Shown here: one piece after another, positions 39,697 through 62,500 of the stretch | Layout: each line of letters starts with the position of its first letter | Position numbering within the stretch: position 1 is the stretch's first letter | Assembly: GCA_964411385.1 (NCBI GenBank) | Contig: CAYPKT010000003.1 | Span: forward strand, 137,302-201,301 | DNA length: 64,000 nucleotides | Reading direction: 5' to 3' | Origin: an uncultured Candidatus Brevefilum sp. | GTDB taxonomy: Bacteria; Chloroflexota; Anaerolineae; Anaerolineales; Anaerolineaceae | Made by a program: the position numbers and the translations under genes | Notes under the pieces: model-generated | Seen by the model: only the letters and a program-made list of their open reading frames with translations | Told to the model about the DNA's origin: nothing | Database searches by the model: none

Positions 39697-40176
39697 TTAA
39701 AGATCATAAGTTGTCTTGATAAGGGTAAGAATTGAATAGAAGCCTTGGTTAATTATGTCGACAATTTCTTTGGCAACCATTTCTACAGTTACGTTGTCTC
39801 CTGCAAAAGGGTCGAGAATATCGAAAGAAGAGAAGCCCGCAGCTTCAGACAAGAGAAATACCCGGTTACGAACATCAGGGAATTCAAGTGAAATTGCTTC
39901 CTTATGGTTACTAGTCATGACGAGAATAAGATTAGCGTTATTCAATAAGTCGTAATTAACCATCCTTGATTTATGGGCATCTAAATTTAATCCAATAGAA
40001 CGGGCGCATTCGAGGGCTGATGGCATAACCGGGAGCCCATTTTCGGCCCAAGTTCCCGCACTTGAAATAAGAATTTCATCACGATAATGACGATTGACAA
40101 GTTCACAGGCAAAATATCCCGCTGCAAGGGGCGAGCGAAAACGATTTGCAGTACAAATGAATAAAATAGAAAACAT
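39697..40176 (-). CDS. Low-molecular-weight protein-tyrosine phosphatase
   Basis: P-loop ILFICTANRFRSP (CX5R-S) at the N-terminus and a downstream Asp in the DP loop. Confidence 0.85.
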   Translation of the reverse strand: MFSILFICTANRFRSPLAAGYFACELVNRHYRDEILISSAGTWAENGLPVMPSALECARSIGLNLDAHKSRMVNYDLLNNANLILVMTSNHKEAISLEFPDVRNRVFLLSEAAGFSSFDILDPFAGDNVTVEMVAKEIVDIINQGFYSILTLIKTTYDL

Positions 40177-40236
40177 CTGAAAACAATTAAAAATAATCCT
40201 CGATATGCGTATAAGAGCCTTATTGTTTATTAAACT

Positions 40237-41157
40237 TCACTGAAGCTTAGGATGATCGCGAGGGACAACAATCCAATCGCCGGGATATAAAACAAAATCT
40301 TCAGAAACATTATTGTAATGAGCAAGTTGTTCAAGAGATACTTCTAATTTTTCCGCTAAATAAGATATCTTTATATTTTCATCAACGACTTCATAAGGTT
40401 CAAAGACAGGCAAATCGGAAACATCTGTAAATTCTAAAGGAATAACAATTACCCAGTCGGCCCAAAGAATATCTAATAAATCGTAATTGATTGCTTTAAT
40501 TGCATCCACGGTAGTACCGTATTTTTCGGCAAAGTGAAGCAAGGTCTCTCCCTCCATTACGCGATGAATGATAAACTGGATTTCTCCGCCTATTGGCACG
40601 CCAAGCGAAAGCGATGGCCTTTGTGCTGTGGGTGTAGGGGGTATTTGTGTATTTGTGGGTTCGGGTGTAAAAGGTGTGATGACTGCTTGCGTGAATTTAT
40701 TACCTGGTTCTATAAGTGCTTTGTTTTCCTCTTGGGTAATTGTTTTTTCTAAATTGATTATTTGCCCAAGTGAATCTGATGGTGGCATGGTTTTACCGCT
40801 GGAAAAAAGCCATTTTTTACCTAACATGAGACTGGTGATTGCAATGATCATTATGAAGATTGCTGCAATTAAATTAAATATTGTCTTTTTTGGGAAAAGC
40901 CCGGCAGGGTTTTGAAAACGTATTTCCTTCGGCATTTTTTGCCTCGATTCCGTTTTGAAAACAGGGCATTCAACGTAATTCGGGCAAAGGCAATATGACT
41001 TTTGATGATCTAAAGACGGTGTGGTAATCGGGGTCACATGATGGCAACAGTTTCCACTTGAAGGATAAGATATTCTTGTTAAAGGATCATGCTTTAATCC
41101 AAGATGCGGGCATGGATCCAGAGTAACTTTTTGATTTTGCGTACTGATGGTTTCCAT
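40237..41157 (-). CDS. Membrane protein with a Cys-rich cytoplasmic N-terminus, one TM helix and two C-terminal LysM domains
   Basis: CPHLGLKHDP...NCCHH...CLCPNYVECPVF at the N-terminus, TM helix IFNLIAAIFIMIIAITSLML, and LysM-like repeats (GETLLHFAEKYGTTVDAIKAINY; LAEKLEVSLEQLAHYN). Confidence 0.75.
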   Translation of the reverse strand: METISTQNQKVTLDPCPHLGLKHDPLTRISYPSSGNCCHHVTPITTPSLDHQKSYCLCPNYVECPVFKTESRQKMPKEIRFQNPAGLFPKKTIFNLIAAIFIMIIAITSLMLGKKWLFSSGKTMPPSDSLGQIINLEKTITQEENKALIEPGNKFTQAVITPFTPEPTNTQIPPTPTAQRPSLSLGVPIGGEIQFIIHRVMEGETLLHFAEKYGTTVDAIKAINYDLLDILWADWVIVIPLEFTDVSDLPVFEPYEVVDENIKISYLAEKLEVSLEQLAHYNNVSEDFVLYPGDWIVVPRDHPKLQ

Positions 41158-41266
41158 TGATAAGTTTATTACGTAATTTACTCCGCGTTTAAATGTACCT
41201 TAAAATTAATGTACTTTGTGAATATAAACAATTCAATTACCTATTATTGATTTTATTTGTTCCATA

Positions 41267-43093
41267 CTATTCAAGATCGACATGTTGATCATCGAGATAA
41301 TAGCTATTCCCATACTTTTTTGGAGAATAATAATCATAACCACCATAATAAAAACCACGATTTTGTGGGATTCTGTTCATTACAACCCCAATTACATTGG
41401 CATGAATTCGCCTTAATTCTTCTAGGGGTGTTTTTACCGCTACAGCACGCGTTTTTCCTGGCCGAATGATATAGACCAACCCATCAATTTTTGTTGATAA
41501 AATTTGAGCATCTGTGACGATTGTTGGTGGGGTGTCGATAATGATGAAGTCAAACGAAGATTCAAGCTCACTCAAAATTCTGGTCATCCGATCGCTTGCC
41601 AATAGTTCTGCTGGGTTAGGAGGTAAGGACCCTGAAGTTATCACGGAGAGATCTGGCACCTTTTCTGATACTTGAATGGCAGAACTTAATTCAATTGGGA
41701 GCCGCATAAGGTCAGATAAGCCAATACGATTGGCAATCATCAACTGGTTGTGAATATTGGGTCTTCGCAAATCTGCATCTAACAAAAGGACACGGTTATT
41801 GCTTTGAGCTAAAACCACTGCCAGGTTGGTTGCTATCGTTGTTTTTCCTTCCTGGGGACCAGAACTGGTAACCAAAATTGTCTTTAACGGGCGGTCAACA
41901 CTAAAGAATTCTAAAGAAGTTCTTAAAGATCTGAAAGCTTCGGATACCGGTGAACGAGGTTGATTGATAACGTAAACAGGTGAATGCCCATTATTTTTTT
42001 GTGCTGATTTGCTTTTTATATCTGAGATAAAGCCGATGACTGGCAACTCAAGTTGTTCTTTAACTTCATCTGGTGTTTTGAGTGTGTCGTCAAAATATTC
42101 CACAAGGAATGCGATTCCGCCAGCCGAGAGAGCACCTACCGCGGCAAACAACAAGCCAGTCTGCATTGGTTTTGGTGAAATCGGGTTTTTTGGCACCCGG
42201 GCTGGCTCCACCTGGACAACCTTTGGGATACTTTGGACGCGCGCAAGATTTAGAGCTTCTAAACTGCTGATGCTTGTCAAATAAATTTGTTGGTAGATAT
42301 CTAATGTGCGTTGAATTTGTGCTACTTTACGGGTTGTTGTGTCGCCACGTTGGATGGGCTCTCCCATAACGGTGAGCTCGGTATTCAATTGCTGATAAAG
42401 AGATAGGATTGGCCTAATTTGGTTTAGCTCTGCTTCTAATGCCAGTCTTTGACGAGTTTGTTCATCCTCTGGTAAAAATTGGTTAATTTGAGTGATTGCA
42501 AATTCAAGAGATGTGACCTGGCTTTGCAATTGATTGATTTGTGTTTCAACCTGGGTTAGTTGTTCAGTGACCTGCGTTGTAGTAATTGTGTCAATTTCCT
42601 GTTGTAAGACATCAATTTGCGTTAAAGCATGGTCTGCCCGCTCCTGTAAATTTTGTTCGGTAGTGGTAAAACGAACGGATTGGAGGTCTTCATTTTGTTC
42701 AATTAAAATTTCCACCAGCTCATTAGCAATGAGCGCAGCTTTTTGCGGATCAGGATGCGTTACCGTTAATCGAACGAATTGTGTATCTCCAATTTGTGCG
42801 GCATTTGCTTGTCCTGAGTAAACTGCGAATCCTAATTGATCAGAGACTTGATCAAGCAAAGCTTCGGTAGATAGAAGCTCGGTGTATGTTGCAACCAGTT
42901 GTTGGTGATCGATGAAAGCATAATAATCAAAGCCGGTTGAGGCTGCACGTAATATTACAAAACGTGTGCTGGCTTGATATAACGGCGTTTCCTGGCTGTC
43001 TAAGTAATACCCAATACCACCTGCAACGAGAGTCGCTAAAATGATTAACCAAAGCCAACGTTTAAATATTTGAAAGATACTTTTTATGTCCAT
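41267..43093 (-). CDS. Polysaccharide co-polymerase / BY-kinase (Wzz domain plus tyrosine autokinase)
   Basis: Wzz-like N-terminus with a TM helix and a coiled periplasmic region. Walker A SSGPQEGKT, DADLRRP, Walker B IIIDTPP, and a C-terminal Tyr cluster FYYGGYDYYSPKKYGNSYY. I place the start at the ATG at 43093 (GGAGA SD upstream). Confidence 0.88.
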   Translation of the reverse strand: MDIKSIFQIFKRWLWLIILATLVAGGIGYYLDSQETPLYQASTRFVILRAASTGFDYYAFIDHQQLVATYTELLSTEALLDQVSDQLGFAVYSGQANAAQIGDTQFVRLTVTHPDPQKAALIANELVEILIEQNEDLQSVRFTTTEQNLQERADHALTQIDVLQQEIDTITTTQVTEQLTQVETQINQLQSQVTSLEFAITQINQFLPEDEQTRQRLALEAELNQIRPILSLYQQLNTELTVMGEPIQRGDTTTRKVAQIQRTLDIYQQIYLTSISSLEALNLARVQSIPKVVQVEPARVPKNPISPKPMQTGLLFAAVGALSAGGIAFLVEYFDDTLKTPDEVKEQLELPVIGFISDIKSKSAQKNNGHSPVYVINQPRSPVSEAFRSLRTSLEFFSVDRPLKTILVTSSGPQEGKTTIATNLAVVLAQSNNRVLLLDADLRRPNIHNQLMIANRIGLSDLMRLPIELSSAIQVSEKVPDLSVITSGSLPPNPAELLASDRMTRILSELESSFDFIIIDTPPTIVTDAQILSTKIDGLVYIIRPGKTRAVAVKTPLEELRRIHANVIGVVMNRIPQNRGFYYGGYDYYSPKKYGNSYYLDDQHVDLE

Positions 43094-43340
43094 ATAATTG
43101 TCTCCGAAGTGATGTTCAAATAGTGAACAAGCGGATGCTGACCGCAGGCAGGCGCACAATTGTTATTATTACGCGATAAAAATGGGTTAACTTTGGCGTT
43201 AATAGCCATTTGTGATTTTGATTAATAATTGACCCTATTTCCTAAAACAAGTAGATTTCAACTGAAAATTAAGAATACCATAAGTTGAATGTGATGGTAT
43301 AAAACATCCAACACAGCTCAAAACAGAAGGCCGCCTGTAA

Positions 43341-44594
43341 TTATTGACCTTCCATCCAGCGCAGGAGTTGCTGGTTGTCATCCTCCCTGTGGGCACTTTC
43401 AATCGCCCCTTTATGTTTTGCCAAAATCTGCCAGGTTGAACGCGCATAATTTTTAAATAAAAACTGTAAGCGAAGAAGGTAATTATAAATCAACGCTGGT
43501 GAATCGGGCTGCACATTGTAAAGACGTGCCATGATGTGCCTTGGAAGAAAAATCCTTTTCATTACGATACTAACTTTATCCCGCCATCGTGTGGCAGAAG
43601 CTAATCTCGCCAAGTCGGGGGTGACCATTACAGCCTCTTCAATAGGCTCCTGAAAGATCTGTGCCTTCGCCTGGATAATGACCTGCGGGTCACCAGGGCG
43701 CTCTAAGAGGCGTTCTAAGGCGTTTTGAGGCAGATGTGTGCCAAACAGGTCGTATAACAGGGTTAATGTCAGGTGTAGAACGCGATTTACTCGCCAATCA
43801 TGGGCTCGAGAAACAAGCATATCCCAATCGACCTGGTTGCCAATCCTTTCAAGGACAACATGGATATCGTAGAGTGCACCTAAACCAGCCCGCAAACGGT
43901 GTTGATAAGTGAAATGAATAGCCAGGTGTAGAACTAAATCCTCGTATGATAGGCTCAATGCCTCAATACTACCAATTTTTGAAGACAGGGCACGCTCCCA
44001 CAGCCCTTGCGGATCTACCTTGAAGCCCCAATCTGCCTCTACAATGGACCAGTGAATTTCAACATAAGGACCCCCAGGTTTGATAAAGGGGGGTATATGT
44101 TTGATATCGTTATTTTCGTCCTTTGTACTGAAATAAGCAGTTTGCTGGTACCCGAGTGCTTCCATGAGCTTGAGCGCCCTCGAAAGATGACTGCGGGGAA
44201 CGAGTAAATCGATATCGTTGAGAACTCGATCGCCGATGTTCGGATAAATGTTGTCCAAAAGATAAATCCCTTTGAGCCCAATCACTGGGACATTGGCGCC
44301 AACCAGATGGCTGATAATCCCTTCAGCATGATGCAGCAAGAGCATGTTGCGGGCTGTATTGCTGAGGTGGATGTTATGGAGACGATTGCTGATATCGGTT
44401 GGAATTGAAAAGGTGTCTGGGGGGGAGCACAGGCGCGAATAAAGCGCCATTGACAAGTTTTGCTTGGCAGCAATACCCAAGAAGGTGTCCCACTCTTCTT
44501 CTGAGAAATTTTGAATGCGGGCCAGGGCTCGTGCTGGAAAGGGACTTGCGTTGAGAACCTGGCAGAGCAGGTTAAGATGGTCTTGGGTGGTCAT
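43341..44594 (-). CDS. PF14907-like uncharacterised nucleotidyltransferase
   Basis: 417 aa. The pattern LKGIYL...GDRVLNDIDLLVP...LGY...IKHIPPF...VEIHW is typical of the NTP_transf_5 family. Confidence 0.65.
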   Translation of the reverse strand: MTTQDHLNLLCQVLNASPFPARALARIQNFSEEEWDTFLGIAAKQNLSMALYSRLCSPPDTFSIPTDISNRLHNIHLSNTARNMLLLHHAEGIISHLVGANVPVIGLKGIYLLDNIYPNIGDRVLNDIDLLVPRSHLSRALKLMEALGYQQTAYFSTKDENNDIKHIPPFIKPGGPYVEIHWSIVEADWGFKVDPQGLWERALSSKIGSIEALSLSYEDLVLHLAIHFTYQHRLRAGLGALYDIHVVLERIGNQVDWDMLVSRAHDWRVNRVLHLTLTLLYDLFGTHLPQNALERLLERPGDPQVIIQAKAQIFQEPIEEAVMVTPDLARLASATRWRDKVSIVMKRIFLPRHIMARLYNVQPDSPALIYNYLLRLQFLFKNYARSTWQILAKHKGAIESAHREDDNQQLLRWMEGQ

Positions 44595-48320: not shown

Positions 48321-49187
48321 CTAAGCATTTTCAATGGTTTCTACCAGGTTAGACCCCTGCTGATAGGCGAGCGTGAAGAATGGTACATGGGTTGTCAAGC
48401 CTTCTAAATTTTCTAAAATATGATTGATTAATTCTGAGCGATAATAAGGAATGAAGGCTGTTTGTAAAATTTTTAAAACCCCATTGGCTGCGGTAAGCGC
48501 GGATAAGGTTTGCGGAGAGGACCTGTCGAGGAAGAACAATTTTTTCAAGGGTACACCTAAAGGGGAGCAGCGATCTGCCCGCACATGCCAGGGCGTGCCG
48601 TAGATCCAAAACTGTCCATCCTGGTAACGGAGGATAACCTGGTCCTCACCTAAAACGGTGATCCCCGGTTTGTCGGCTAAATCATCGGCGATGGTTGATT
48701 TCCCTGCACCGGATGGACCAAAAAAGACATAGCCTGAGCCAGCAAGGGCGACACCTGAGGCGTGCAAGATGAGGTCACCGTAATTTGCCAGGTAATTTGA
48801 AAACAAAACTATGTCTAAATATTGCAGCGGGTAAAAATCAAGCTCTCCTGGAGTATTTTGATCAATAAATACCTCTCCACATTGAAAGTTAGGGTCGATC
48901 ACCACCCAGCGTTTTGGCAAAATTTCAGACAGGAAAAACACATAATTCCCAGCGGGCTCTTTCCATAGTTCCCAAAGTGGGTTTTTAACAATCAGGTGAT
49001 TAGCCAATGGGCTTTTGAACACATGCTCAGATAATAATAGCCTTATAGGCATTGGACGATCAGCTAATAACCCCACTGGTAAATCTTCAGAAAGAAGAAA
49101 ACCCTGGTAAGATGACGGAAGCCAGGTGGGTTGTGTTGAACTCCTGGCTTCCAGAATGAGTTGTGAACCTCCGATAGATAAAATCAC
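48321..49187 (-). CDS. HPr-kinase-related (HprK C-terminal-domain-like) P-loop kinase
   Basis: LILHASGVALAGSGYVFFGPSGAGKSTIADDL matches the HprK-like Walker A region. The start is a GTG at 49187 and is uncertain. Confidence 0.65.
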   Translation of the reverse strand: MILSIGGSQLILEARSSTQPTWLPSSYQGFLLSEDLPVGLLADRPMPIRLLLSEHVFKSPLANHLIVKNPLWELWKEPAGNYVFFLSEILPKRWVVIDPNFQCGEVFIDQNTPGELDFYPLQYLDIVLFSNYLANYGDLILHASGVALAGSGYVFFGPSGAGKSTIADDLADKPGITVLGEDQVILRYQDGQFWIYGTPWHVRADRCSPLGVPLKKLFFLDRSSPQTLSALTAANGVLKILQTAFIPYYRSELINHILENLEGLTTHVPFFTLAYQQGSNLVETIENA

Positions 49188-49281
49188 AAAGAAATTTTCG
49201 TTGATTACAAAAACGAAATTTATTGGTTAATTCGTGTAAAAATATTAACCTATTAATAACGAAGGTAAGGATCATCCCCGG

Positions 49282-49467
49282 TTACGGGTGTGCACCTTCA
49301 GGACAGCCAACATGTTGATCATAACAAGCAATAGTCCATCCAGATGAGCCGGGAATTTCTTCTGCGGGGTATAAATTTGGGCTGGTATGGCAAACACCTA
49401 AGATAGCGCTTTTATAGGCAAGCTCTACTTTTTTAACGGTTGGCGCTGTGTATGGCTTTTTATTCAT
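49282..49467 (-). CDS. Candidate RiPP precursor peptide (61 aa, 3 Cys)
   Basis: MNKKPYTAPTVKKVELAYKSAILGVCHTSPNLYPAEEIPGSSGWTIACYDQHVGCPEGAHP. SD AGGAGA lies 9 nt upstream of the ATG at 49467. This start overlaps the stop of the radical SAM gene by 8 nt. Confidence 0.6.
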   Translation of the reverse strand: MNKKPYTAPTVKKVELAYKSAILGVCHTSPNLYPAEEIPGSSGWTIACYDQHVGCPEGAHP

Positions 49468-50572
49468 GGCTATGGATCTCCTTTGAAACATTCATTATGT
49501 TAATAATATCATATTCTGTATTTTTTGCCAATTGGCAAACATAATCGACAATGCTTTCATTATCGCCGTAAACCAATTGCGAGAACCCTGGGCATTGAGC
49601 ACATAACCCCGAAGCGGTGCAGGTTAAACAGGATGAAGGTTGTGTGCGTAATCTTTTAGGTTCAAGCCCCAGTTTTTTCCAGGCAGCGTCAAAGCCTGTG
49701 GTTAATACATCGTAAGACGTTTGACGTGCCATCATGCATAAATTAATGCGTCCGGCACTGTCAATATGAAATGATCGAAACCCAGCACCGCAATGGTAGA
49801 TGCGCTCATCTCTTAAGGTCAGCCCATTTGTATTTTCAAAGGTTTGAATCCAACCCTCCATACGCTTTGGGTCACGATGATTAAGTTTCAGCATGTCATC
49901 GATAGAAAGGCGGTAATTAAAATTGTCGTTGTTCCCATCGAGCCGGGGCCAGATGGTGCCATCATAATGTAATTCAACCCCGTAACTATCAGCGAGAGCG
50001 ACCATGTTTTGTAAGTCATGCTTATTTAGGCTGATCACCACCGATTTAAGGACGAATTTAATCCCACTGCTGGCGATTAAATCCAACCCAGCGGTAAAAC
50101 GTCTAAAAGAACCTGGAATGCGGGTGACAGCTTCATAAGTTTCTTCTGTTCCACCATACATGGTGACCTCAATTTGGGAAGGTGGGGCATCTAACAGCAT
50201 GTCTATGATCTTTGGCGTCATCATGGTGGCGTTCGTGAACAAGGTGATGATCAAGCCTTTTTTGCGGGCATACTGGTAAATTTCAGAAAAATCGGGGCGC
50301 AGCAGAGGTTCACCGCCGGTTATCAACAGGAACAGGGTGCCGGCTGCAGCAATTTGGTCGAAAATCGATTTAACTTGCGGGGTTGTCATTTCAGCCGCAA
50401 TCGCTTCAAGGCTGCCAGGCGGCTGGTTGATATAACAATGGACGCAGTTTAAATTGCAGCGGCTGGTGAGGTCAATACTGCCGCTGAGCGGGAATCGAGC
50501 ATCACCGATCGGCTTGTAAAATTGCTCCCACCAGGTAGCATTGTCAATTTCAGGGATGTTTAAACAATCCAT
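49460..50572 (-). CDS. Radical SAM enzyme with a C-terminal SPASM-like auxiliary cluster domain
   Basis: CNLNCVHCY (CxxxCxxC), GGEPLL, and a Cys-rich C-terminus (CGAGF...LCMM...CLTCTASGLCAQCPG). The start is either the ATG at 50572 or the GTG at 50617; the latter would overlap the PqqD gene by 38 nt. Confidence 0.85.
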   Translation of the reverse strand: MDCLNIPEIDNATWWEQFYKPIGDARFPLSGSIDLTSRCNLNCVHCYINQPPGSLEAIAAEMTTPQVKSIFDQIAAAGTLFLLITGGEPLLRPDFSEIYQYARKKGLIITLFTNATMMTPKIIDMLLDAPPSQIEVTMYGGTEETYEAVTRIPGSFRRFTAGLDLIASSGIKFVLKSVVISLNKHDLQNMVALADSYGVELHYDGTIWPRLDGNNDNFNYRLSIDDMLKLNHRDPKRMEGWIQTFENTNGLTLRDERIYHCGAGFRSFHIDSAGRINLCMMARQTSYDVLTTGFDAAWKKLGLEPKRLRTQPSSCLTCTASGLCAQCPGFSQLVYGDNESIVDYVCQLAKNTEYDIINIMNVSKEIHSHE

Positions 50573-50579
50573 AAGGTAT

Positions 50580-50870
50580 TTAAATCGCCTCCAAAGCTCC
50601 GATTTCAACCATATCACCGATGAAAGGCTCTAAATCGGAATGGGCATCATCTAAAGATACCAAAAACTCATCCAGAATCGAGCTGACTAATTCATCAAGA
50701 GTTTTTGGGTTTTCAAGCTGTTCCCACACGAAGGCGCCGATTTCGTTTAAAGAAAAGATATGATCCATCTCAGCTACGTCCTTGTGGACGGGCACGAGGA
50801 TGGTTTCTTCTGCGATTTTTCGATAAATGAAATCGGGATTTCTACGATAATGTATTATCGTTTCGGACAT
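50580..50870 (-). CDS. PqqD-family protein (RiPP recognition element-like)
   Basis: 96 aa. RRNPDFIYRKIAEETILVP...IFSLNEIGAFVWEQLENPKTLDELVSSILDEF matches the PqqD pattern. SD GGAGG lies 5 nt upstream. Confidence 0.8.
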   Translation of the reverse strand: MSETIIHYRRNPDFIYRKIAEETILVPVHKDVAEMDHIFSLNEIGAFVWEQLENPKTLDELVSSILDEFLVSLDDAHSDLEPFIGDMVEIGALEAI

Positions 50871-50879
50871 ATTGACCTC

Positions 50880-51428
50880 CTAAGATAAGTATTTACAAAA
50901 ACCTGGTACACATTTTAAAGGACGGTTGGTTAACCTAAGGTGATTATAACGGTTGAGTTGATGTCTGAGGCTGAAAACCATCCACAGAGAAAGCAACCGC
51001 ATGGATGAACGACTCATGCTGAAGTGTTCGCCAGTGCGCTCAAAAGACGCTAAGCGTCCATAAATAGCCTCAAGTGAAATCCATCCGTCAGCTTGAATAG
51101 AATTGTCAGCTTGCAGGAGAAACCTATGGCCAGATTCGTGTTGGCGTATTCGAATCACCCGATGAAGGACCATGCGGCCATGTTTATCAGCGAAGAAAAC
51201 CACATCACCAACCCGGATTGGGCCACCTGCAAGTGGAGTAATTAACAACATATCTCCCTGCCTAATGATCGGGACCATACTGTCCCCCGTGGCAAGCAGC
51301 CTGACAGCTTTACCGGAACGCAAACCCTCCTGGCATAAGTATGTGAAAACGTCAGGCGAGGGGGAGAACTTCTCTAGTAGAAATGGTTGGTTTGGGTTAC
51401 CTGGTCGAGTAGAAGGCATAACAATCAC
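50880..51428 (-). CDS. S26B (Sec11/SipW-type, Ser-His) signal-peptidase-like protein lacking an N-terminal TM helix
   Basis: ATGDSMVPIIRQGDMLLI, VGDVVFF, MVLHRVI and LLQADNS parallel the SGSMEP / GD / THRI / GDNN boxes of SipW-type enzymes. The start is either the GTG at 51428 or the ATG at 51419. Confidence 0.65.
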   Translation of the reverse strand: MIVMPSTRPGNPNQPFLLEKFSPSPDVFTYLCQEGLRSGKAVRLLATGDSMVPIIRQGDMLLITPLAGGPIRVGDVVFFADKHGRMVLHRVIRIRQHESGHRFLLQADNSIQADGWISLEAIYGRLASFERTGEHFSMSRSSMRLLSLWMVFSLRHQLNRYNHLRLTNRPLKCVPGFCKYLS

Positions 51429-51511: not shown

Positions 51512-52720
51512 CTAAGGTCGAGCTGCGGAGACCGGGCCAAACAATTCAGGCGTGTAGCTGGTATCGGAGGGAACGTCCTCGATCCAGTAGAAATAGGTCA
51601 GGCCGAGCTCAGCTGTGGTATCGAGGTAAGCGTAGTTGGCGCCGAAGGGGTTACCAGGGTTCGAATCGCCGACAATGATTTTACCGTTGATTTTTTCCTT
51701 AACACCGAACTCCATCTCAGAGCGATAAACGTTGAAGCCCAGGTGGTTGACTTCGGTAGCGGTGACCCAATTAAGTTGAATCCCGCCAGAGACGCCTTCA
51801 GCCTGGAGGTCGAGCATAATCACCGGGGTGATATCTTCGTTAGTGATGGCAGCGTATACACAATAGCAGTTATTTGTTTGCTCGGCAGTATACACCAGGT
51901 TATTTGAAAAGTCGGTCCCAATTGGAACGGTTGAGGGGCATTGCCCTGACGCAGGCTTATCGATAAAACCCAACAGGGAGACGGTGTATTCCCGTTCGAC
52001 TGGGTCGCCAGGCGTAGTGATGTTATCTACACATGTAAAATATTGTGTGTCACCTGGTTTGGTAATATTGACCCTGTCTGCACAGCCATTGCGGTTGGGA
52101 CCAGTATCTCCAGATACGTTTGGATAAGCTGAGCCACCCGGCCAATTGGGAGAGCTTGGGCCATATCTGCAAGGACTTTGGTTGTTCGTCGTCTCATCCA
52201 GGTTAAAGGTATAGACGAAATCCATCGTAGTTGGAGCATCCACCACATATGGTAGGTCACAAGCTAAACCGCTGATTGTAGCGGTGAGATCTACATACTC
52301 AAATGGATTATTGGGTGTAGAAATCGGGTTGTTAAAATGACAAAACGTGCCCACGTTAAAGGGAGTATTCAACGCGGGAGCATCGCCGATCCCTGTGCGT
52401 CCGAGGAAACCAAAACCACTTTTATTGCCAAAGGTATCTGATGAACCATAGCGTACCTGGTTCCAGTCAAAAGTTACGCGATTTTGAGTGTAAAGGTGAT
52501 TATTAGATCCGGAGGTAGAAGTAGTTTTGTAAGTCGGGTTGTCGTAATCATTTGAAGTAGCAGCTGGCCCGGTTGCCCACGTATTTCCGGTGGCTCCTCC
52601 GCCGCTATCAATTAACCCCCACACGCCATCCACACTGTTCATCGTAAAGGCTTGGACGACGCCTGTCAAGGTCAACGCTGCCATTAGCAGGCCAAAAATT
52701 AAAAGTATTTTCTTTTTCAT
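51512..52720 (-). CDS. Secreted Cys-rich protein, FCHFNN (THxN / choice-of-anchor-K-like) N-domain plus FN3-like C-domain, paralog A
   Basis: Signal peptide MKKKILLIFGLLMAALTLTGVVQA|FT. Motifs NQVRYGS...GFGFLG...GDAPALNTPFNVGTFCHFNNPI, and C-terminal LNWVTATEVNHLGFNVYR...YFYWIEDV. The ATG at 52720 has a 6-nt spacer from GGAG; an alternative ATG is at 52726. Confidence 0.75.
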   Translation of the reverse strand: MKKKILLIFGLLMAALTLTGVVQAFTMNSVDGVWGLIDSGGGATGNTWATGPAATSNDYDNPTYKTTSTSGSNNHLYTQNRVTFDWNQVRYGSSDTFGNKSGFGFLGRTGIGDAPALNTPFNVGTFCHFNNPISTPNNPFEYVDLTATISGLACDLPYVVDAPTTMDFVYTFNLDETTNNQSPCRYGPSSPNWPGGSAYPNVSGDTGPNRNGCADRVNITKPGDTQYFTCVDNITTPGDPVEREYTVSLLGFIDKPASGQCPSTVPIGTDFSNNLVYTAEQTNNCYCVYAAITNEDITPVIMLDLQAEGVSGGIQLNWVTATEVNHLGFNVYRSEMEFGVKEKINGKIIVGDSNPGNPFGANYAYLDTTAELGLTYFYWIEDVPSDTSYTPELFGPVSAARP

Positions 52721-53005
52721 CACCATCTCCTTAATTTAATTATCATAAATTGATAAATATTTCCCTTGTTTTAATAATTTACCCATCTTAAAAATTTGCT
52801 CTTTTGAGCTGAACTTATTAAAGTATAACGAAATAAAAAATAATTGTCAATATTTATTTTCTATTTTAAACGGTTTTCCTAATTTAAAAACAAATATCAT
52901 TAAATTACATTAAGAAAGTTTTGAAATAAATTTAAATACATGAATAACACAAATTGATTGCGACCCCTACAGCGGTGGTTTTGCGGTGCTCCTTAAGATA
53001 TCCTG

Positions 53006-56656: not shown

Positions 56657-56833
56657 AGAGAATAGTGAGTGGTGAATGAGAAGTAGGAAATAGGAAGTAG
56701 GAAGTAGGAAATAGGGATTAGGGAATAGGAAATAGGGACTAGGAATTAGGAAGTAGGAAATGGGGATTAGGAAATAGGGATTAGGAAATAGGAAATAGGG
56801 ATTAGGAAGGAGGAAGTAGGAATTAGGGATTAG
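56657..56833. repeat. Heptanucleotide tandem array GRAWTAG, about 24-25 units (array B)
   Basis: gaagtag gaaatag gaagtag gaagtag gaaatag ggattag ggaatag ... gaattag ggattag. The last unit contains the VanZ stop codon. Confidence 0.9.
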
Positions 56834-57264
56834 ATCAGACTGTCATCTTTATGTCGATTTTCATCAAAGGGGTGGTACCAGATGATGTAGGTGATCAACC
56901 CGAGCAGGGCACCCCAGCCCGCCATCAATATGTCGCGGGTGTTGAACCCCCGATCGGGGATCAGGTTCTGGTAAAGCCCATTAACCAAGGCGAAAAGGAC
57001 TGCAAGAACAAAGGCTGCCAGCAGACTCATGGCATTGGATGGTTTGGTCCAGATGGTGGCACGCGCTATGAAAAAGGTAAAACCCATGTAAAGGATCACC
57101 TGGGTAAACATCAGGATAAACTGATCTAATTGGATGTTTAGAAAGCGGATGTTTTCCGCGGTTTCTTTCAGCCCAAACAGGGGGTTAGGATTGCTGGACG
57201 CCAGGAAGATCAACAGCGCCCAGATGATAAGGGGATGCCAGCGTTTACGTAAAAAATGGTTCAT
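56830..57264 (-). CDS. VanZ-like membrane protein
   Basis: 144 aa, 4 TM helices, and C-terminal DRGFNTRDILMAGWGALLG, which is typical of the VanZ-like family. Confidence 0.7.
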   Translation of the reverse strand: MNHFLRKRWHPLIIWALLIFLASSNPNPLFGLKETAENIRFLNIQLDQFILMFTQVILYMGFTFFIARATIWTKPSNAMSLLAAFVLAVLFALVNGLYQNLIPDRGFNTRDILMAGWGALLGLITYIIWYHPFDENRHKDDSLI

Positions 57265-57335
57265 GGTATTAGGGGATTGGGAATTAGGAAATATGAATTA
57301 GGAAATAGGGATTAGGAATTAGGTAATTGGAAAAA
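57265..57335. repeat. Heptanucleotide array of the same family, about 9-10 units (array C)
   Basis: ggtatta ggggatt gggaatt aggaaat atgaatt aggaaat agggatt aggaatt aggtaat. It abuts the VanZ start codon. Confidence 0.8.
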
Positions 57336-57391
57336 TTATGGTTTTGTTGATTAATTTTGATAAAGAAAGTAGTTAAGGTTGCGTTCATAAG

Positions 57392-58519
57392 TTAATTGAA
57401 GATCTCTGCAATAGCTTCGACAACGCAGGTGACCTGGTCTTCAGTCATGGTTGGGTAGAGCGGTAGGGTCACCTGGCGGCGGGCGACGGATTCGGTCAAG
57501 GGCAAGGGAGGGTTATGCCCATAAATTTTGAAACTGGTCACAGGGGGGTAATGCCAGCTAACTTGAATCCCTTTTTCTTTCATGGCGTCCATAAAGTGAC
57601 GCTTATCCGCATCACTGGGCAATAAGACCGGCATGATGTGGTAACTGCTTTGGCCACGTTGCTGTCCAAAGGGCACATTGATTTGGGGCGTTAAGCTGGC
57701 AAATTTCTCGCGATACAGTGCGGTTAGCTGTGCGCGGCGGCGATTGCCTGCCGCCACTTTTTTTAGCTGAACCCGCCCTAAGGCAGAGCGCAATTCGTCA
57801 ATACGGTAGTTGTAACCCAGGTCGACCACGTCGTAGGTGCTGGCGTGCCCTTGGTGGCGGTCCCAGGTGAGGGTGGTCATCCCGTGAGAGCGCAGGATGC
57901 GAATTTTTTCTGCCAATTCATCATCATCGGTAACCAACATGCCGCCTTCCGCGGTGGTCATGTTTTTGTTGGCAAAGAAAGAATAACAGCCAAGCTTTCC
58001 CCAGGAACCTAAGGCACGACCTTCCAATGAGGCGCCAACGGCGTGGGCAGCATCTTCAATCACTGCCAGGTTGTGCTGTTCTGCAATTTCAAGGATGGCT
58101 GGCATGTCACAGGGGTAACCGGCATAGTGCATCACCATGATGGCTTTGGTTTTATTAGTAATGGCTGCCTTAATGGATAGGGGCGAGATATTGAGCCAAT
58201 CCTCGCTTTCGATATCGACAAACACGGGTGTTGCATCGGTATAGCGGATGGTATTGGCACTGGCGACGAAGGTCAGCGCTGGTAGAATGACTTCATCCCC
58301 GACGCCTAATCCAGCGGCTAAGCAAGCTAAATGTAGCGCCGCGGTAGCATTTGTGACAGCAAAGGCATGTTTACAGCCAGCAAAGGTGGCAAATTCAGCT
58401 TCAAACGCCTGGGTGACAGCGCCCATCGAGAGCCAGCCAGAACGAATAACTTCAACGATGGCGGCTTCCTCTTCAGCGTTGAGGTTAAGGTCAGAAAGAG
58501 GGACTTTCCAATTGATCAT
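57392..58519 (-). CDS. DegT/DnrJ/EryC1/StrS-family PLP-dependent sugar aminotransferase
   Basis: 375 aa. Family pattern AVTNATAALHLA...DAAHAVGA...FSFFANKNMTTAEGG. Confidence 0.88.
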   Translation of the reverse strand: MINWKVPLSDLNLNAEEEAAIVEVIRSGWLSMGAVTQAFEAEFATFAGCKHAFAVTNATAALHLACLAAGLGVGDEVILPALTFVASANTIRYTDATPVFVDIESEDWLNISPLSIKAAITNKTKAIMVMHYAGYPCDMPAILEIAEQHNLAVIEDAAHAVGASLEGRALGSWGKLGCYSFFANKNMTTAEGGMLVTDDDELAEKIRILRSHGMTTLTWDRHQGHASTYDVVDLGYNYRIDELRSALGRVQLKKVAAGNRRRAQLTALYREKFASLTPQINVPFGQQRGQSSYHIMPVLLPSDADKRHFMDAMKEKGIQVSWHYPPVTSFKIYGHNPPLPLTESVARRQVTLPLYPTMTEDQVTCVVEAIAEIFN

Positions 58520-58531
58520 TAATGAAATCCT

Positions 58532-59245
58532 TTATGCTTTTGGTAAAAATTGTTCTCGCATTCTTTCGAAATCAAGGTTAGCCTGCGCGTAATCATCCGG
58601 GTTGCCCAAATCCATCCAATAGCCATTGAATGGGTAGCCAACCACGCGTTCTTTGGCTGAAAGCAACTTATGAACGAGGTCTGGAAAATCAAGATAATCG
58701 TCTTTTGGGACGTAGTCCAACACGCGAGGCTCAAAAATGTACATGCCCATGCTCACTTTATAATTCAGGGTGGGTTTTTCTACATAATCCGTGATCGAAA
58801 AATCGTTTTCTGCTTGCTTGATAATGCCCAAGTCAACTTTAAATTCTCGTTCATGCATCGCAATGGTACAAATCGCACCCTGTTGGTGGTGGAAAGTAAC
58901 CAGGTCAGTGATATCCAGTAAGGTTAGCACGTCACCGTTGCACACAAGAAAGGTTTCATCAAGATCAGGTATCAAAGCCAGAGGGCCTGCGGTCCCTAAG
59001 GGTTTAGACTCGAAAGAATAGGTGATATCGAGAGCATATTTTTGTCCGTCTTGAAAGAAAGCCTGCATTAAACCAGCGAGGTGACCTACTGTCAAAACAA
59101 CTTGCTTAATGCCGGCGCGTTTAAGCTGTCTTAGGAGGATTTCGAGAATCGCTTTATCTCCTACAGGCATCATTGGTTTGGGGATGACATAAGTGTAAGG
59201 GGCCAAGCGAGTGCCGCGTCCACCGGCAAGAATAATTGCTTTCAT
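58532..59245 (-). CDS. Sugar-phosphate nucleotidyltransferase
   Basis: N-terminal MKAIILAGGRGTRLAPYTYVIPKPMMPV signature. Confidence 0.85.
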   Translation of the reverse strand: MKAIILAGGRGTRLAPYTYVIPKPMMPVGDKAILEILLRQLKRAGIKQVVLTVGHLAGLMQAFFQDGQKYALDITYSFESKPLGTAGPLALIPDLDETFLVCNGDVLTLLDITDLVTFHHQQGAICTIAMHEREFKVDLGIIKQAENDFSITDYVEKPTLNYKVSMGMYIFEPRVLDYVPKDDYLDFPDLVHKLLSAKERVVGYPFNGYWMDLGNPDDYAQANLDFERMREQFLPKA

Positions 59246-59315
59246 AGGATTTAGCTTTCTAATTGTTTAATAGATTCGTAAACATAAAAATGAATAAGCC
59301 CTAACCCAGAAAAAA

Positions 59316-60308
59316 CTACATTGCGTACTTTCCAATGTGGTACCGATCAAGATGTTGGCGAACCCAGGCGATGGTCTGCTCTAAGCCGGTGCGGAGATCA
59401 ACTTCTGGCTGCCAGTTTAACAAAGTGCGTGCTTTACGGTTATCAGAAAGAAGGCGCATTACCTCGGAATGCTCTGGGCGCAAACGCTTGGGATCAACGC
59501 GTACCTCAACAGACCTGCCGATTAATTCAATCACCAATGCCGCTAATTCAGCGATACTGACCTCTGCGCCGTACCCCAGGTTGATCGTTTCCCCATTGAT
59601 ACCAGGGGTTGCCGCTGCCTTGATGAACCCGTCAACGGTGTCGCTAAGATAGGTGAAATCTCGCTTGGCGTCTAAATTGCCGAGATGAATTTCATCCTGC
59701 GTGAGCGCCTGGGTAATGATAGCAGGGATGACCGCCCGTGCAGATTGACCTGGCCCGTAGGTATTGAAGGGTCGCACGGTTACCGCTTGCAACTCATAGG
59801 AACGGACGTAACTTTCAACGAGCTTATCTGCGCCGATTTTGCTGGCTGAATAGGGAGATTGCCCCTGGAGGGGGTGATTCTCATCGATAGGGACACGAAG
59901 GGCGGTGCCGTACACTTCGCTGGTTGAGGTGTGCACCAGCGCACAGTTGTGTGCCCGGCAAGCTTGCAGAACATTTAGCGTGCCAATCAGGTTGCTTTCT
60001 ACAACTTCAACAGGGTGAAGGTATGAATAGGGAATTGAAATCAACGCTCCCAGGTGAAAAATTAAATCAGTTTTGGTTGCCGCCTGTGAGATTGCATCAT
60101 CATCACGCAAATCGCCGGCGATGATTTCGACCCTATTAAGAGTCTCTTCTGGCAATGATCGCAGCAAGCCAATATCGTCGCGGGAATTATAACGCACAAA
60201 GGCTCTCACATTTGCGCCAATGGCAGTTAATCTTTCGACAAGACTGGTTCCAATAAATCCGCCGGCACCGGTGACAAGGATATTTTTGTGTTGCAGGCTA
60301 TGAGACAT
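59316..60308 (-). CDS. NAD-dependent NDP-sugar epimerase/dehydratase (extended SDR)
   Basis: ILVTGAGGFIG Rossmann motif and catalytic YSASK. Confidence 0.85.
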   Translation of the reverse strand: MSHSLQHKNILVTGAGGFIGTSLVERLTAIGANVRAFVRYNSRDDIGLLRSLPEETLNRVEIIAGDLRDDDAISQAATKTDLIFHLGALISIPYSYLHPVEVVESNLIGTLNVLQACRAHNCALVHTSTSEVYGTALRVPIDENHPLQGQSPYSASKIGADKLVESYVRSYELQAVTVRPFNTYGPGQSARAVIPAIITQALTQDEIHLGNLDAKRDFTYLSDTVDGFIKAAATPGINGETINLGYGAEVSIAELAALVIELIGRSVEVRVDPKRLRPEHSEVMRLLSDNRKARTLLNWQPEVDLRTGLEQTIAWVRQHLDRYHIGKYAM

Positions 60309-61830
60309 TGCTTTGATTATCTTCTAGGTTCTCCAAAGATTGTTTAAATACTTTAAATAAATCGGGAATGATGATGGTTTGAGCTGCGGTAGATTGACAA
60401 ATTGTTAACAGGTTTTCCTGGCATTCGGTTGTGCAATTGGATATGGCAAATAAGATCAGACCAATATCATATTTCTCGACTAACCATGAAATATCATCAG
60501 TTGTCCCTATGACCCTGAAGCCCATAAGTTCTCGGTTTTGCTTGCGCAGATCGTCATCGACAATCCCAATGACTGTAAAAACGTCGGGGTAAGCACTGCG
60601 ATTTAACATCCATACTGCCAGCTCACCTAATTCACCGGCACCGACTACTAAAATGCGCTCTCCATAAGAAGCTTTACTGCCGCGCAATAAGATCCATCGA
60701 TTCGCCAGCCCGGTGATGATCCGTTCTCTAAAACGAACAGCGATCAAAGCGATTAAGATCATCAACCCCATTATCCAAAACAGGGCGAAATCGATCATAG
60801 GCTCAGCCAACCAAAAACGATTGATCGCCCACAAGGCAATCATAGCAACAAACACCGAAAAAGCAATATCAATTACATATGTGGGCCCAACTTTCCTCCA
60901 ATCAAGACGATGTAATCCTAAAGCTGAATTAATGATACCGATAAATAACGAAGCTAAGAAACCCCCAATTAGAAAAGTGGGAATGCCCAAGTGAAGAGGC
61001 GTATTAACACGCCAAATTAATCCCGCTAAACCAATGGTGATATAAACGACGATTAAATCGACGACAAACCAGGTAAAAATCCGGTGGGCGACGGTATAAA
61101 ACGTCCCCGCATAAAGATATTGCTCGCGAATATGAGCTTCATTTATTTTTGGGAGGAATGTAATCAGGGTTAAGAATAAAACATCAAGGTCACTAATGAA
61201 CGATTGATTGTCAATATATAGTTGGTCAAGCCTAAGCTTGTCGGGCAAAATACTGCGTACATAGTCATCGATGTAAGACCTGCCGGATAGCAGCTCCTCT
61301 TCGTTGCGATAAATAACCGAAGCGGGGCTGGTCATACCTGGGCGAATGGATAGAATTTTATCTCTTATCTCAGCTGGCCACTCTTCGACGAATTGAGGAT
61401 CTTCGGGTCGTGGGCCAACTAAACTCATATCCCCTTTTAGGACATTCCACAGTTGGGGAATCTCATTGAGTTTTGTGGCTCGAAGCCACTTCCCAATTGG
61501 TGTTACACGAGTATCGTTTTTAGTCGTTAATGGGGGGCCTTGTTGCGTTCCACTATTCTCGAACATCGTACGGAATTTTAACATGGCAAAGTATTTGCCA
61601 TGTTTACCAACTCGCGTGGCTTTATAGAAAATTGGCCCATGTGAGTCGCGTTTGATAGCGAAAGATACGATGGCAAACAACGGTGAAAGCAAAATCAAAC
61701 CAAAGAATGACAGGACGATGTCGAAGCCTCGTTTTAGAAAACGAGAAAAAGGTTTTTTTGTTAAAGATAATTTATTAGCAAAGGATTCTTTGAATAATTG
61801 AGTTTCTTCAGTATTAATCGTGTTTGTCAT
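60298..61830 (-). CDS. Polyprenyl-phosphate sugar phosphotransferase with reversed domain order (transferase domain first, then TM bundle plus Rossmann-like domain)
   Basis: N-terminal KRGFDIVLSFFGLILLSPLF...MLKFRTM...LNEIPQLWNVLKGDMSLVGPRPE. This is followed by about 5 TM helices and RILVVGAGELGELAVWML...VIGIVDDD. Confidence 0.8.
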   Translation of the reverse strand: MTNTINTEETQLFKESFANKLSLTKKPFSRFLKRGFDIVLSFFGLILLSPLFAIVSFAIKRDSHGPIFYKATRVGKHGKYFAMLKFRTMFENSGTQQGPPLTTKNDTRVTPIGKWLRATKLNEIPQLWNVLKGDMSLVGPRPEDPQFVEEWPAEIRDKILSIRPGMTSPASVIYRNEEELLSGRSYIDDYVRSILPDKLRLDQLYIDNQSFISDLDVLFLTLITFLPKINEAHIREQYLYAGTFYTVAHRIFTWFVVDLIVVYITIGLAGLIWRVNTPLHLGIPTFLIGGFLASLFIGIINSALGLHRLDWRKVGPTYVIDIAFSVFVAMIALWAINRFWLAEPMIDFALFWIMGLMILIALIAVRFRERIITGLANRWILLRGSKASYGERILVVGAGELGELAVWMLNRSAYPDVFTVIGIVDDDLRKQNRELMGFRVIGTTDDISWLVEKYDIGLILFAISNCTTECQENLLTICQSTAAQTIIIPDLFKVFKQSLENLEDNQSNVS

Positions 61831-62028
61831 ATACCTTAATTTGCCCCTGTCAATGGCTTGTTAAAGACCAAACTTATTAATTTAATGGAAGTGATTATAA
61901 CACAAATCAAATTTAAATTTGCTAAGTTGAGAAAATCGATGCTCAAGGGTAATCAATTATGAAGGATATTATTCTGGAAAGCATGTTGATTGTGAATTTT
62001 ACTTCACTCATTGAGATATCGCTCTAAG

Positions 62029-62466
62029 TTAATCGATAGCGAATTTCCTTTTCGTTAAATATTTTGTAATTAAAATTCCAAAAATGGCAGAAAGTGTGTC
62101 GAGCAAAATATCGGATAATGAGGCATGACGCCCAGGCACGAAAGATTGTAGGAGCTCATCCATGCAAGCAAAAATAAATATGATCACTAACGCCTTTGTA
62201 AAGGGATGTTGCGTTAACCCTAGCAATATGCGATAGATGATGCTGCCAAGCAAACCATAAACCAAAAAGTGAAAAGCTTTATACCAGTCAAACAGGGTAA
62301 GAAATGAAAGAAAACCCGTATAGTAGAGCCAATTTTGAATGGGTCTAGCAAATTGTTTGTAGGCGTTGTTAACAATATCTCCGCTGGTAGCGGACATGAA
62401 TAAAACTAGCGCCATTAATAAAATTGCCGAAAGATATTTAATATATGGTTTTGATGTGTTTGACAT
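62029..62466 (-). CDS. VanZ-like membrane protein
   Basis: 145 aa, 4 TM helices, motif ELLQSFVPGRHASLSDILLDTLSAIFG. Confidence 0.65.
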   Translation of the reverse strand: MSNTSKPYIKYLSAILLMALVLFMSATSGDIVNNAYKQFARPIQNWLYYTGFLSFLTLFDWYKAFHFLVYGLLGSIIYRILLGLTQHPFTKALVIIFIFACMDELLQSFVPGRHASLSDILLDTLSAIFGILITKYLTKRKFAID

Positions 62467-62500
62467 GGAAATGTTTTCGTCGCCAGGTTTTTAGGGTTAA

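Follow-up and report, generated by a model that had tools for sequence, protein, structure and literature searches.

The 64,000-nucleotide (nt) stretch of uncultured Candidatus Brevefilum DNA studied here (hereafter the window) carries on its minus strand a group of five open reading frames (ORFs), packed almost without gaps, that form a putative maturation cassette for a ribosomally synthesised and post-translationally modified peptide (RiPP). In the order in which they are read, these genes encode a soluble serine peptidase of the Sec11/SipW type (S26B-like), which is the proposed leader peptidase (50880..51428; PF00717 and SEC11A alignment), a PqqD-family peptide-binding protein, that is, a RiPP recognition element (RRE; 50580..50870; PF05402), a 370-amino-acid (aa) radical S-adenosylmethionine (rSAM) enzyme with a full SPASM domain (49460..50572; PF04055 and TIGR04085), a 61-aa precursor peptide, MNKKPYTAPTVKKVELAYKSAILGVCHTSPNLYPAEEIPGSSGWTIACYDQHVGCPEGAHP (49282..49467; conserved small ORF with a ribosome-binding site), and an ScmC-like P-loop phosphotransferase of the HprK/PEPCK fold, the proposed peptide kinase (48321..49187; PF27840 and Foldseek). 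An ORF listing reproduced every coordinate of the first-pass annotation, which had described the five packed genes with stops and starts at 50880 and 50870, 50580 and 50572, and 49460 and 49467. The successive intergenic distances are 9, 7, -8 and 94 nt, the last of these separating the small ORF from the kinase-like gene as had been reported. Regarding the start of the rSAM gene, for which two codons had been offered, the ATG at 50572 is shared with homologues and with the NCBI gene call (370 aa), whereas the GTG at 50617 merely defines the longest ORF (49460-50617). The rSAM stop codon TAA (49462-49460) overlaps the ATG of the small ORF at 49467 in the junction cATGAATAA, an AAGGAG sequence lies 10 nt 5' of this ATG, and the precursor is judged from these sequence features to be translationally coupled to the rSAM gene. 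A promoter-like site within the 3' end of the rSAM gene (49503..49531, minus strand; TTGGCA-17-TATTAT with a TG extension, 10/12 consensus matches) is found about 35 nt 5' of the precursor ATG, and this extended -10 site might provide the precursor with a transcript of its own. Terminator-like sites were not enriched (15 observed versus 15.1 expected) and none follows the precursor gene; an Rfam search of the 38-64 kb region of the window gave no match.

A genome scan with the rSAM protein recovered 80 further loci that span about ten phyla, with representatives in Anaerolineae, Nitrospirota, Desulfobacterota, Omnitrophota, Aminicenantes, Verrucomicrobiota, Planctomycetota, Actinomycetota, Methanocella and others. 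At E <= 1e-10, 2520 rSAM homologues were found, distributed among Chloroflexota, the bacterial phyla of the 80-locus scan and methanogenic archaea; a metagenome scan with the single rSAM protein yielded 5 loci only. Co-occurrence was counted within 5 kb of the homologous rSAM gene. By this measure a PqqD gene was present in 70 of the 80 genomes, a kinase-like gene in 66, the peptidase in 59, the precursor in 56 and, for two genes that lie downstream of the cassette in the window, PF14907 in 18 and the C25 peptidase in 14. Because the partner genes recur in this way across 80 genomes, the cassette arrangement is not a matter of chance. Fusions between the kinase-like protein and an rSAM enzyme (ScmC-rSAM) occur in 20 loci, and fusions between the S26 peptidase and PF14907 in four (L012, L014, L015 and L021, that of L015 being confirmed separately), which links these enzymes to a single pathway. 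Two architectures were distinguished, namely single-rSAM loci, to which the window belongs, and multi-rSAM loci, in which two or three rSAM enzymes are encoded. Cultivable bearers of the multi-rSAM form include Desulfosediminicola flagellatus and Methanocella sp. MCL-LM.

Comparison with related loci indicates that the 61-aa ORF is a real and conserved gene. It is annotated in the NCBI and Logan assemblies, and related loci contain an ORF of 49-64 aa with the same N-terminal motif straight after the rSAM gene. Throughout the family, the precursor is composed of a leader in fixed register, K-x-x-Y-x-x-P...L...L-x-x-C, and a hypervariable tail. In the clade of the window (n = 28), numbered from the leader tyrosine (Y0, Tyr6 of the window peptide), positions K-3, Y0, P3, L10, L17 and C20 are invariant, corresponding to Lys3, Tyr6, Pro9, Leu16, Leu23 and Cys26 in the window. 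S23 (Ser29 of the window) is kept in 27 of these 28 precursors, the remaining one having Thr, and P28 is kept in 26. All 28 have three cysteines (Cys26, Cys48 and Cys55 in the window peptide), and the variable tail always includes a Cys-X4-8-Cys element. A precursor profile matched small ORFs in 62 of 88 sequences (87 loci and the window). In almost every single-rSAM locus the match lies directly 3' of the rSAM gene; in the multi-rSAM loci it occupies other places in the cassette, in some cases on the opposite strand. The first-pass annotation had seen in the precursor, the RRE and the rSAM/SPASM enzyme the standard logic of peptide maturation, and these profile matches, together with the conservation of the small ORF across phyla and its presence in syntenic loci, bear this out. 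A word-index protein search with the peptide found only three near-identical peptides, and an exhaustive search of 1.84 billion representative proteins gave 15 further short peptides of the window type; two long matches of the latter search (P0245 and P0246) were repetitive junk and were discarded. Some cassettes contain two to four paralogous precursor genes (L018 at 5742-6074, four ORFs in L030, two each in L055, L062 and L066), and the multi-rSAM cassettes have mostly four-Cys precursors, all with the common leader and a C-terminal Ser.

The rSAM enzyme matched PF04055 (E 4e-22, 79.5 bits). It carries the sequence CNLNCVHC (CX3CX2C motif), and its C-terminal cysteines are spaced according to the SPASM pattern CX12GX4C...CX2CX5CX2C...C; the three rSAM and seven SPASM cysteines are invariant in an alignment of 16 homologues. 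The C-terminal 131 aa scored 27.7 bits with the SPASM model TIGR04085 (cut-off 27) and remained below the cut-off of the Pfam SPASM family PF13186 (15.9 versus 21.5). Both the motif and the Cys-rich SPASM-type tail of the first-pass annotation are confirmed. By contrast, the enzyme reached the cut-off of no curated NCBIfam family (bits/cut-off: AhbD 110/500, MftC 102/265, StsB 88/625, PqqE 71/381, AlbA 63.1/850 and PapB 51.9/340), and with a best score of 110 bits against 500 it does not fall inside a characterised family; a position inside one is what the first-pass annotation had named as speaking against its proposal. MftC, the second-best NCBIfam match, aligned over residues 47-342, that is, nearly the whole enzyme, whereas the best solved relatives, BlsE, PqqE and SkfB, matched the N-terminal core only. 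The SPASM region is weakly similar to QhpD (TIGR03906, E 4.8e-5), all QhpD-type scores being far below cut-off. An assignment as anSME was rejected, anSME being outside the 25 best NCBIfam matches, and a cofactor-type assignment was likewise rejected on the NCBIfam scores. The 96-aa protein encoded upstream, in which a PqqD/RRE pattern had been noticed, matched PF05402 well above its cut-off (E 3.7e-14, 53.2 bits versus 23.4); its best NCBIfam matches are ScmD and the lasso PqqD chaperone, both weak and below cut-off.

The peptidase scored 29.4 bits with PF00717 (cut-off 23.3) and fell just short of the cut-off of TIGR02228 (47.8 versus 51.85). It aligned with human SEC11A (7p2p, E 8.8e-9), the motifs GDSMVP, LHRV and ADNS..D being in register with the catalytic Ser, His and Asp. 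Among 62 cassette-linked homologues, Ser50 (60/61), His89 (62/62), Arg90 (61/61) and Asp108 (59/60) are almost fully conserved. None of the 62 has an N-terminal membrane segment (the maximum 19-residue hydropathy of the window protein is 1.44), and the 11 that contain a stretch with a 19-residue hydropathy above 1.6 mostly have it C-terminal to the catalytic domain. The alignment, the conserved triad and the missing hydrophobic N-terminus agree with the initial description of a Ser-His peptidase devoid of an N-terminal anchor. One of the homologues fused to PF14907 passes TIGR02228 (62 versus 51.85). Because it has no membrane anchor, is linked to the cassette and is sometimes fused to PF14907, the peptidase is predicted to act in the cytoplasm on the peptide and not on secreted preproteins.

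Regarding the kinase-like protein, a precomputed match to PF27840.1 (ScmC) is on record for most homologues and for P0121, a protein with 100% identity to that of the window. Matches to TIGR04355 (29.2/200) and TIGR04352 (20.3/200) were weak and far below cut-off, HprK PF07475 gave no match, and a sequence search of solved structures returned marginal P-loop matches only. An AlphaFold model (predicted local distance difference test score, pLDDT, 88.6) was compared by Foldseek with known structures and matched PEPCK (E 1.5e-7) and the C-terminal domain of HprK/P (1kkl and 1jb1, about 1e-5, target template-modelling score 0.53-0.55). In the homologue alignment, H142, G157, G162-K163-S164-T165 and E181-D182 are invariant, defining the motif H...GxxGxGKS/T...ED (LH[AG]..G.SG.GKS[T]...ED in the alignment). 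By its model, the protein has the HprK/PEPCK fold, and it has the HprK-type motif, as expected for the HprK-like kinase first proposed; phosphotransfer to a Ser of the peptide is predicted. The motif corresponds to the His-Lys-Asp-Asp set described for the lasso kinases (PMC9266682). The likeness to these kinases is one of fold, motif and published description.

In lasso peptide systems, kinases of the HPr kinase family phosphorylate the C-terminal Ser of the precursor, for which the recognition protein is required, at least by BsfK; PsmN puts a hexose on the phosphoserine, PsmN and BsfN accompany HprK-like kinases, and the lasso leader contains the motif YxxPxL (PMC9266682, PMC10368454). The leader of the present family reads Y/W-x-x-P-x-(V/I/L), and the multi-rSAM leader gave a weak, sub-threshold match to the paeninodin lasso family (E 0.048). 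Outside Anaerolineae, a C-terminal Ser was found in 28 of 30 single-rSAM and 28 of 30 multi-rSAM precursors; because of this occurrence (56/60) and of the lasso precedents, the kinase is proposed to phosphorylate a Ser of the peptide. The clade of the window has largely lost this residue (0/13 in one tally, 2/28 in the full clade set) and retains the kinase catalytic residues. There, the near-invariant Ser29, three residues after Cys1, is a candidate phospho-acceptor. The counterpart of the lasso decorating enzymes would be a PF14907 (NTP_transf_5) protein encoded downstream on the same strand (43341..44594; E 4e-53). A second PqqD and PF14907 pair is found beside DegT upstream of the cassette in L001 (813-2667), with no rSAM gene of its own, which suggests that the pairing can stand alone in exopolysaccharide (EPS) loci.

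Synteny in the clade of the window indicates that the unit is larger than the five genes at 48321-51428 and includes the PF14907 gene, a C25 peptidase gene and a surface-protein gene located upstream. The C25 gene (44723..48280, minus strand) encodes a secreted gingipain/PorU-like peptidase of 1185 aa with Ig/cadherin-like domains, which matched PF01364 (E 5.9e-73) and Propeptide_C25; with 249.3 bits against the 420 required by the PorU model NF033707, it is not a member of that family. C25 genes lie directly 3' of the kinase-like gene in L001, L003-L006, L008, L097 and L098, are separated from it by one gene or about 1 kb in L007 and L099, and encode a giant protein directly 5' of PqqD in L024-L028, L032, L034 and L039. 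Tight linkage between a C25 surface protein and the cassette is seen in at least five phyla. Among the Anaerolineae-type loci inspected, the gene directly 5' of the cassette is one for a secreted surface protein. In the window it encodes a choice-of-anchor-K protein (51512..52726, minus strand; NF038131, 37.5 bits versus 30), and in relatives the corresponding sites are L001 6244-7563, L003 2100-3722, L004 5271-7199, L097 6347-8065, L098 6480-8189 and L099 2265-8186. These proteins differ in their N-terminal domains (choice-of-anchor K, LTD, SpaA_4 or SdrD_B) and share a C-terminal domain of about 100 aa with the motif ..W.T..E..NLGFN[ILV]YR...TY[FY]YWLEDV...GP.SA, located at 51515-51829 and 54245-54559 (minus strand) in the window. 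A profile of the domain also matches the C-terminus of the C25 protein of L008 and an internal site of the giant C25 proteins beside PqqD in other phyla. Surface protein and C25 peptidase thus form a single chain in those phyla, whereas here they are encoded on either side of the cassette. An AlphaFold model of the common domain, made from a two-sequence alignment, was unusable (pLDDT 37.7).

The C25 proteins of the window (44723-44770, minus strand), L001, L003, L097 and L098 also end in a short hydrophobic motif, [IVF][FY]LP[LTI][ILF]x[RK], which may be a sorting tag; in the window it reads IFLPLF followed by ISGPNK, and the protein ends in ...GFGIFLPLFISGPNK. On the other side of the cassette, a unit of about 2.7-2.8 kb that comprises a gene for a 264-aa secreted protein and a choice-of-anchor-K gene is duplicated in tandem (51464-53972 and 54194-56798). 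The copies agree at 74-96% of their nucleotides, the two 264-aa proteins share 63% identity, and promoter-like sites of almost the same sequence (TTGACA-17-TATACT, 11/12) are found at 52850-52822 and 55669-55641. The 264-aa protein matched no Pfam or NCBIfam family, and a homologue occurs in L001. Three arrays of a purine-rich heptamer, (TAGGRAW)n, are located at 53851-53972, 56680-56827 and 57276-57333. The 7-nt unit is repeated 17, 21 and about 8 times, respectively; Tandem Repeats Finder scored the third array as 3.9 copies of a 14-nt period. They are intergenic and stand just 5' of three minus-strand genes, those of both 264-aa proteins and VanZ. No match to them was found in 99 related loci, and they could be regulatory or prone to slippage.

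Beyond these genes, the window presents EPS genes on both sides, assigned by Pfam and all on the minus strand. The order across the locus is methyltransferase, Bac_transf priming transferase, epimerase/dehydratase, NTP_transferase, DegT aminotransferase and VanZ (56830..63208), the two copies of the 264-aa and choice-of-anchor-K pair, the cassette, the C25 peptidase, PF14907, and then a downstream EPS block (39697..43159) composed of Wzz/BY-kinase (41267-43159), a LysM protein (40237-41157) and a low-molecular-weight phosphotyrosine phosphatase (39697-40176). Largely the same upstream gene set occurs in L097, where VanZ instead stands between the methyltransferase and Bac_transf, and in L004, which has no DegT or VanZ; in L098 the Wzz and phosphatase genes flank the cassette as they do in the window. 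An Omnitrophota chromosome (L015) has the cassette between Poly_export and Wzz-Wzy, and in an Aminicenantes locus the cassette is bordered by genes for sugar modification. Among 129 neighbour genes of 29 single-rSAM loci, the commonest families include AAA_31 (BY-kinase type, 6), TPR (6), ABC_tran (5), Poly_export (4) and Wzy_C (3). The EPS setting, as these gene neighbourhoods indicate, is recurrent in the family and not universal, and the location between EPS genes, which had at first been called unusual, is found again in Anaerolineae and Omnitrophota loci. Pfam scans of the large ORFs (about 130 aa or more) over most of the window, about 12 large ORFs being unscanned, found no lasso B or C gene, YcaO, LanM or peptidase-ABC exporter, in agreement with the first-pass annotation, and the 38-64 kb region contains no gene for an exporter or for immunity. 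Elsewhere in the window, a 938-aa protein with leucine-rich repeats, a chitobiase-type domain and a CotH kinase domain (17044-19860, plus strand) is unrelated to the cassette.

Among named systems, the closest is SynChlorMet (ScmD TIGR04248, ScmC TIGR04249, ScmE TIGR04250 and ScmF TIGR04251), which is defined in silico only. Like the window, it has a PqqD-family protein, one or more rSAM/SPASM enzymes and an ScmC-type P-loop protein, and ScmC and ScmD are the most specific, if weak, NCBIfam matches of the window proteins. By contrast, all scores are below cut-off (ScmC 27.1/125, ScmD 30.6/100, ScmE 60.2/400 and ScmF 79.1/400), SynChlorMet has two rSAM/SPASM enzymes and single-rSAM loci such as that of the window only one, and the window family has as conserved partners, unlike SynChlorMet, the Sec11-like peptidase, PF14907 and C25. 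The multi-rSAM relatives were also considered as true SynChlorMet cassettes and rejected, the same cut-offs being missed. As both forms remain below them, the family is a distant relative of SynChlorMet and not a member. The initial view that the combination belongs to no named RiPP class stands in so far as no component reaches an NCBIfam cut-off and full-text literature searches found no paper on the cassette, those for SynChlorMet, ScmC, HprK-related kinase and PF14907 with radical SAM returning nothing relevant; the combination is nevertheless not unprecedented, given this distant in-silico relative.

The closest characterised logic is that of lasso tailoring (B1, the kinases PadeK, ThcoK, PsmK and BsfK, and PsmN/BsfN), which likewise unites a recognition protein, an HprK-fold kinase and a PF14907-type protein. 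Lasso precursors and the window family share the leader Y-x-x-P-x-(V/I/L) and, in most family precursors, the C-terminal Ser. Unlike a lasso cluster, the window has among the large ORFs scanned neither a B2 transglutaminase-like protease nor a C asparagine-synthetase-like cyclase; it has instead an rSAM/SPASM core modifier and a Sec11-type serine leader peptidase, and its clade is largely without C-terminal Ser. Like the window, sactipeptide and ranthipeptide systems (AlbA, SkfB, CteB, PapB, StsB) rely on a recognition element and an rSAM/SPASM maturase to process a precursor with cysteines. The window differs from them by scores far below cut-off, a separate recognition protein and the additional kinase, PF14907 and S26-type peptidase; its three conserved precursor cysteines are consistent with a thioether product without proving one. 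Mycofactocin (MftA-F) and pyrroloquinoline quinone (PQQ; PqqA-F) have in common with it a small peptide, PqqD, rSAM/SPASM and a peptidase, MftC and PqqE being among the better matches; scores below cut-off, the absence of the other pathway enzymes and the hypervariable precursor tail set the window apart. Two components have relatives of their own. The peptidase has the catalytic Ser-His-Asp and surrounding motifs of Sec11/SipW (S26B), from which it differs by its missing anchor, its TIGR02228 score and its linkage to the cassette. The C25 protein resembles PorU, the type IX secretion sortase, in its catalytic and propeptide domains, its best NCBIfam matches and its linkage to proteins with a common C-terminal domain; unlike PorU, it scores only 249/420, no other type IX secretion genes were seen, and in other phyla the common domain lies inside the C25 protein and not at the C-terminus of a cargo protein.

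Taken together, we consider it likely that the five genes form a RiPP-type maturation cassette of a large uncharacterised family distantly related to SynChlorMet; the product would probably be a modified peptide of a new type with a link to the cell surface. A pathway can be proposed in which PqqD would bind the leader through K-x-x-Y-x-x-P-x-V/I, as lasso recognition proteins bind YxxPxL, and the rSAM/SPASM enzyme would crosslink the core at the three cysteines, thioethers being the likeliest product. The ScmC-like kinase would then phosphorylate a hydroxyl of the precursor bound to the recognition protein (the C-terminal Ser in most of the family, Ser29 being the best candidate here), the PF14907 protein may extend the phosphate, and the soluble Sec11-like peptidase would take off the leader. 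Given the EPS genes, the secreted C25 peptidase and the surface proteins among which the cassette lies, the cell surface is the probable site of action of the product. Comparative evidence supports the biosynthetic logic well, and it is from the sequences that we infer the crosslink type, the phospho-acceptor, the cleavage site and the biological role.

Several points weigh against this proposal. The crosslink, the phosphorylation and the cleavage site are all predicted. To known thioether synthases the rSAM enzyme bears only a remote resemblance (PapB 52/340, AlbA 63/850, StsB 88/625), and SPASM enzymes also form C-C and C-O links or oxidise Cys; the three precursor cysteines could, moreover, include a plain disulfide. 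The C-terminal Ser is largely lost in the clade of the window, which leaves the phospho-acceptor a guess, the peptidase is absent from some clade loci (L001 and L007), and conservation as strong as that of the 32 residues around Cys1 is not what a disposable leader usually shows. Finally, the cassette lacks an exporter or immunity gene, and EPS hallmark genes occur in a sizeable minority of neighbourhoods and not in all.

A first alternative is that the biosynthesis is the same and that the cell secretes an ordinary peptide of the sactipeptide/ranthipeptide type with an antimicrobial or signalling function, the EPS position being meaningless. Many loci have no recognisable EPS gene within 10 kb, ABC_tran and ABC2_membrane genes lie near some of them, and the Cys tail is hypervariable, as in diversifying bioactive RiPPs. 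Yet the block formed by EPS genes and cassette is largely syntenic in L097, L004 and L098, the cassette of a distant phylum (L015) is bordered by Poly_export, Wzz and Wzy, a C25 surface protein accompanies it tightly in at least five phyla, and the 38-64 kb region of the window offers neither exporter nor immunity gene. For these reasons we regard an ordinary secreted product as rather unlikely. A further reading, in which the peptide is not an antibiotic but itself a dedicated surface component, a crosslinked, phosphorylated and possibly phosphoglycosylated primer, linker or cofactor that attaches polysaccharide or surface proteins together with the PorU-like C25 peptidase, seems rather unlikely as well.

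A related alternative holds that the peptide is not released but retained by a protein or polysaccharide partner, for example C25, for which it would be a small crosslinked subunit, a carrier of a cofactor or a covalent linker. QhpC matured by QhpD is a model for the subunit version, a phosphoglycosyl-peptide glycan primer being an alternative model. The block from K-3 to P28, Cys1 included, is conserved far above what is usual for a throw-away leader, and the SPASM region has the weak similarity to QhpD (TIGR03906, E 4.8e-5) mentioned above, which must be set against QhpD-type scores that are all far below cut-off. Linkage between the C25 and surface-protein genes is tight, and in other phyla a single giant protein encoded beside PqqD combines the two; C25 is nevertheless within 5 kb in just 14 of the 80 loci. 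The missing exporter would fit a retained peptide, and relatives of PF14907 put sugar on phosphoserine (PMC9266682). Against this, a dedicated leader peptidase points to release of a free peptide, and any complex with a partner is hypothetical. On balance, a retained subunit or linker seems improbable to us.

The products of the PQQ and mycofactocin pathways suggest a third alternative, a peptide-derived small-molecule cofactor in which few residues survive processing. PqqD, rSAM/SPASM and peptidase form the core of these pathways too, MftC is the second-best match (102 bits, residues 47-342), and the conserved C-terminal Ser of most clades recalls C-terminal chemistry. The scores (MftC 102/265, PqqE 71/381) are nevertheless insufficient, the Pfam scans of the window found no homologue of PqqB/C or MftD/E/F, and the tail is hypervariable in sequence and length with a C-terminal residue that is unconserved in the clade, whereas cofactor precursors keep their reacting residues; we therefore give a cofactor very little credence. 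Finally, the small ORF can hardly be a bystander of an rSAM enzyme that modifies a neighbouring protein in the way of anSME with sulfatases, for although SPASM enzymes include such protein-modifying anSMEs and a surface-protein gene always adjoins the cassette in this clade, the ORF is conserved in place and sequence over about ten phyla in loci that mostly lack surface-protein and C25 genes, a PqqD-type recognition protein implies a leader-bearing peptide, and anSME is outside the 25 best NCBIfam matches.

A RiPP-type cassette with a surface-linked product would be of interest to researchers in both the RiPP and the cell-envelope fields. The family is large, with no member studied, no curated model and no paper found, and possibly represents a new RiPP class. 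To our knowledge, a recognition protein, an HprK-like kinase and a PF14907 protein have so far been described together in lasso peptide systems only; here this tailoring triad is joined to a radical SAM core, which suggests that it moves between RiPP classes. Among RiPP leader peptidases, a soluble enzyme of the Sec11 type would be a novelty. That the cassette lies time and again within EPS loci and is tightly linked to a secreted C25 peptidase suggests a role in building or regulating the cell surface, which would apply to mostly uncultured lineages that are common in anaerobic digesters and sediments; the organism of the window is itself carried by anaerobic-digester samples (runs SRR8925751-53). 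If the peptide is itself a dedicated surface component, Chloroflexota and several candidate phyla would possess a peptide-based surface-assembly system.

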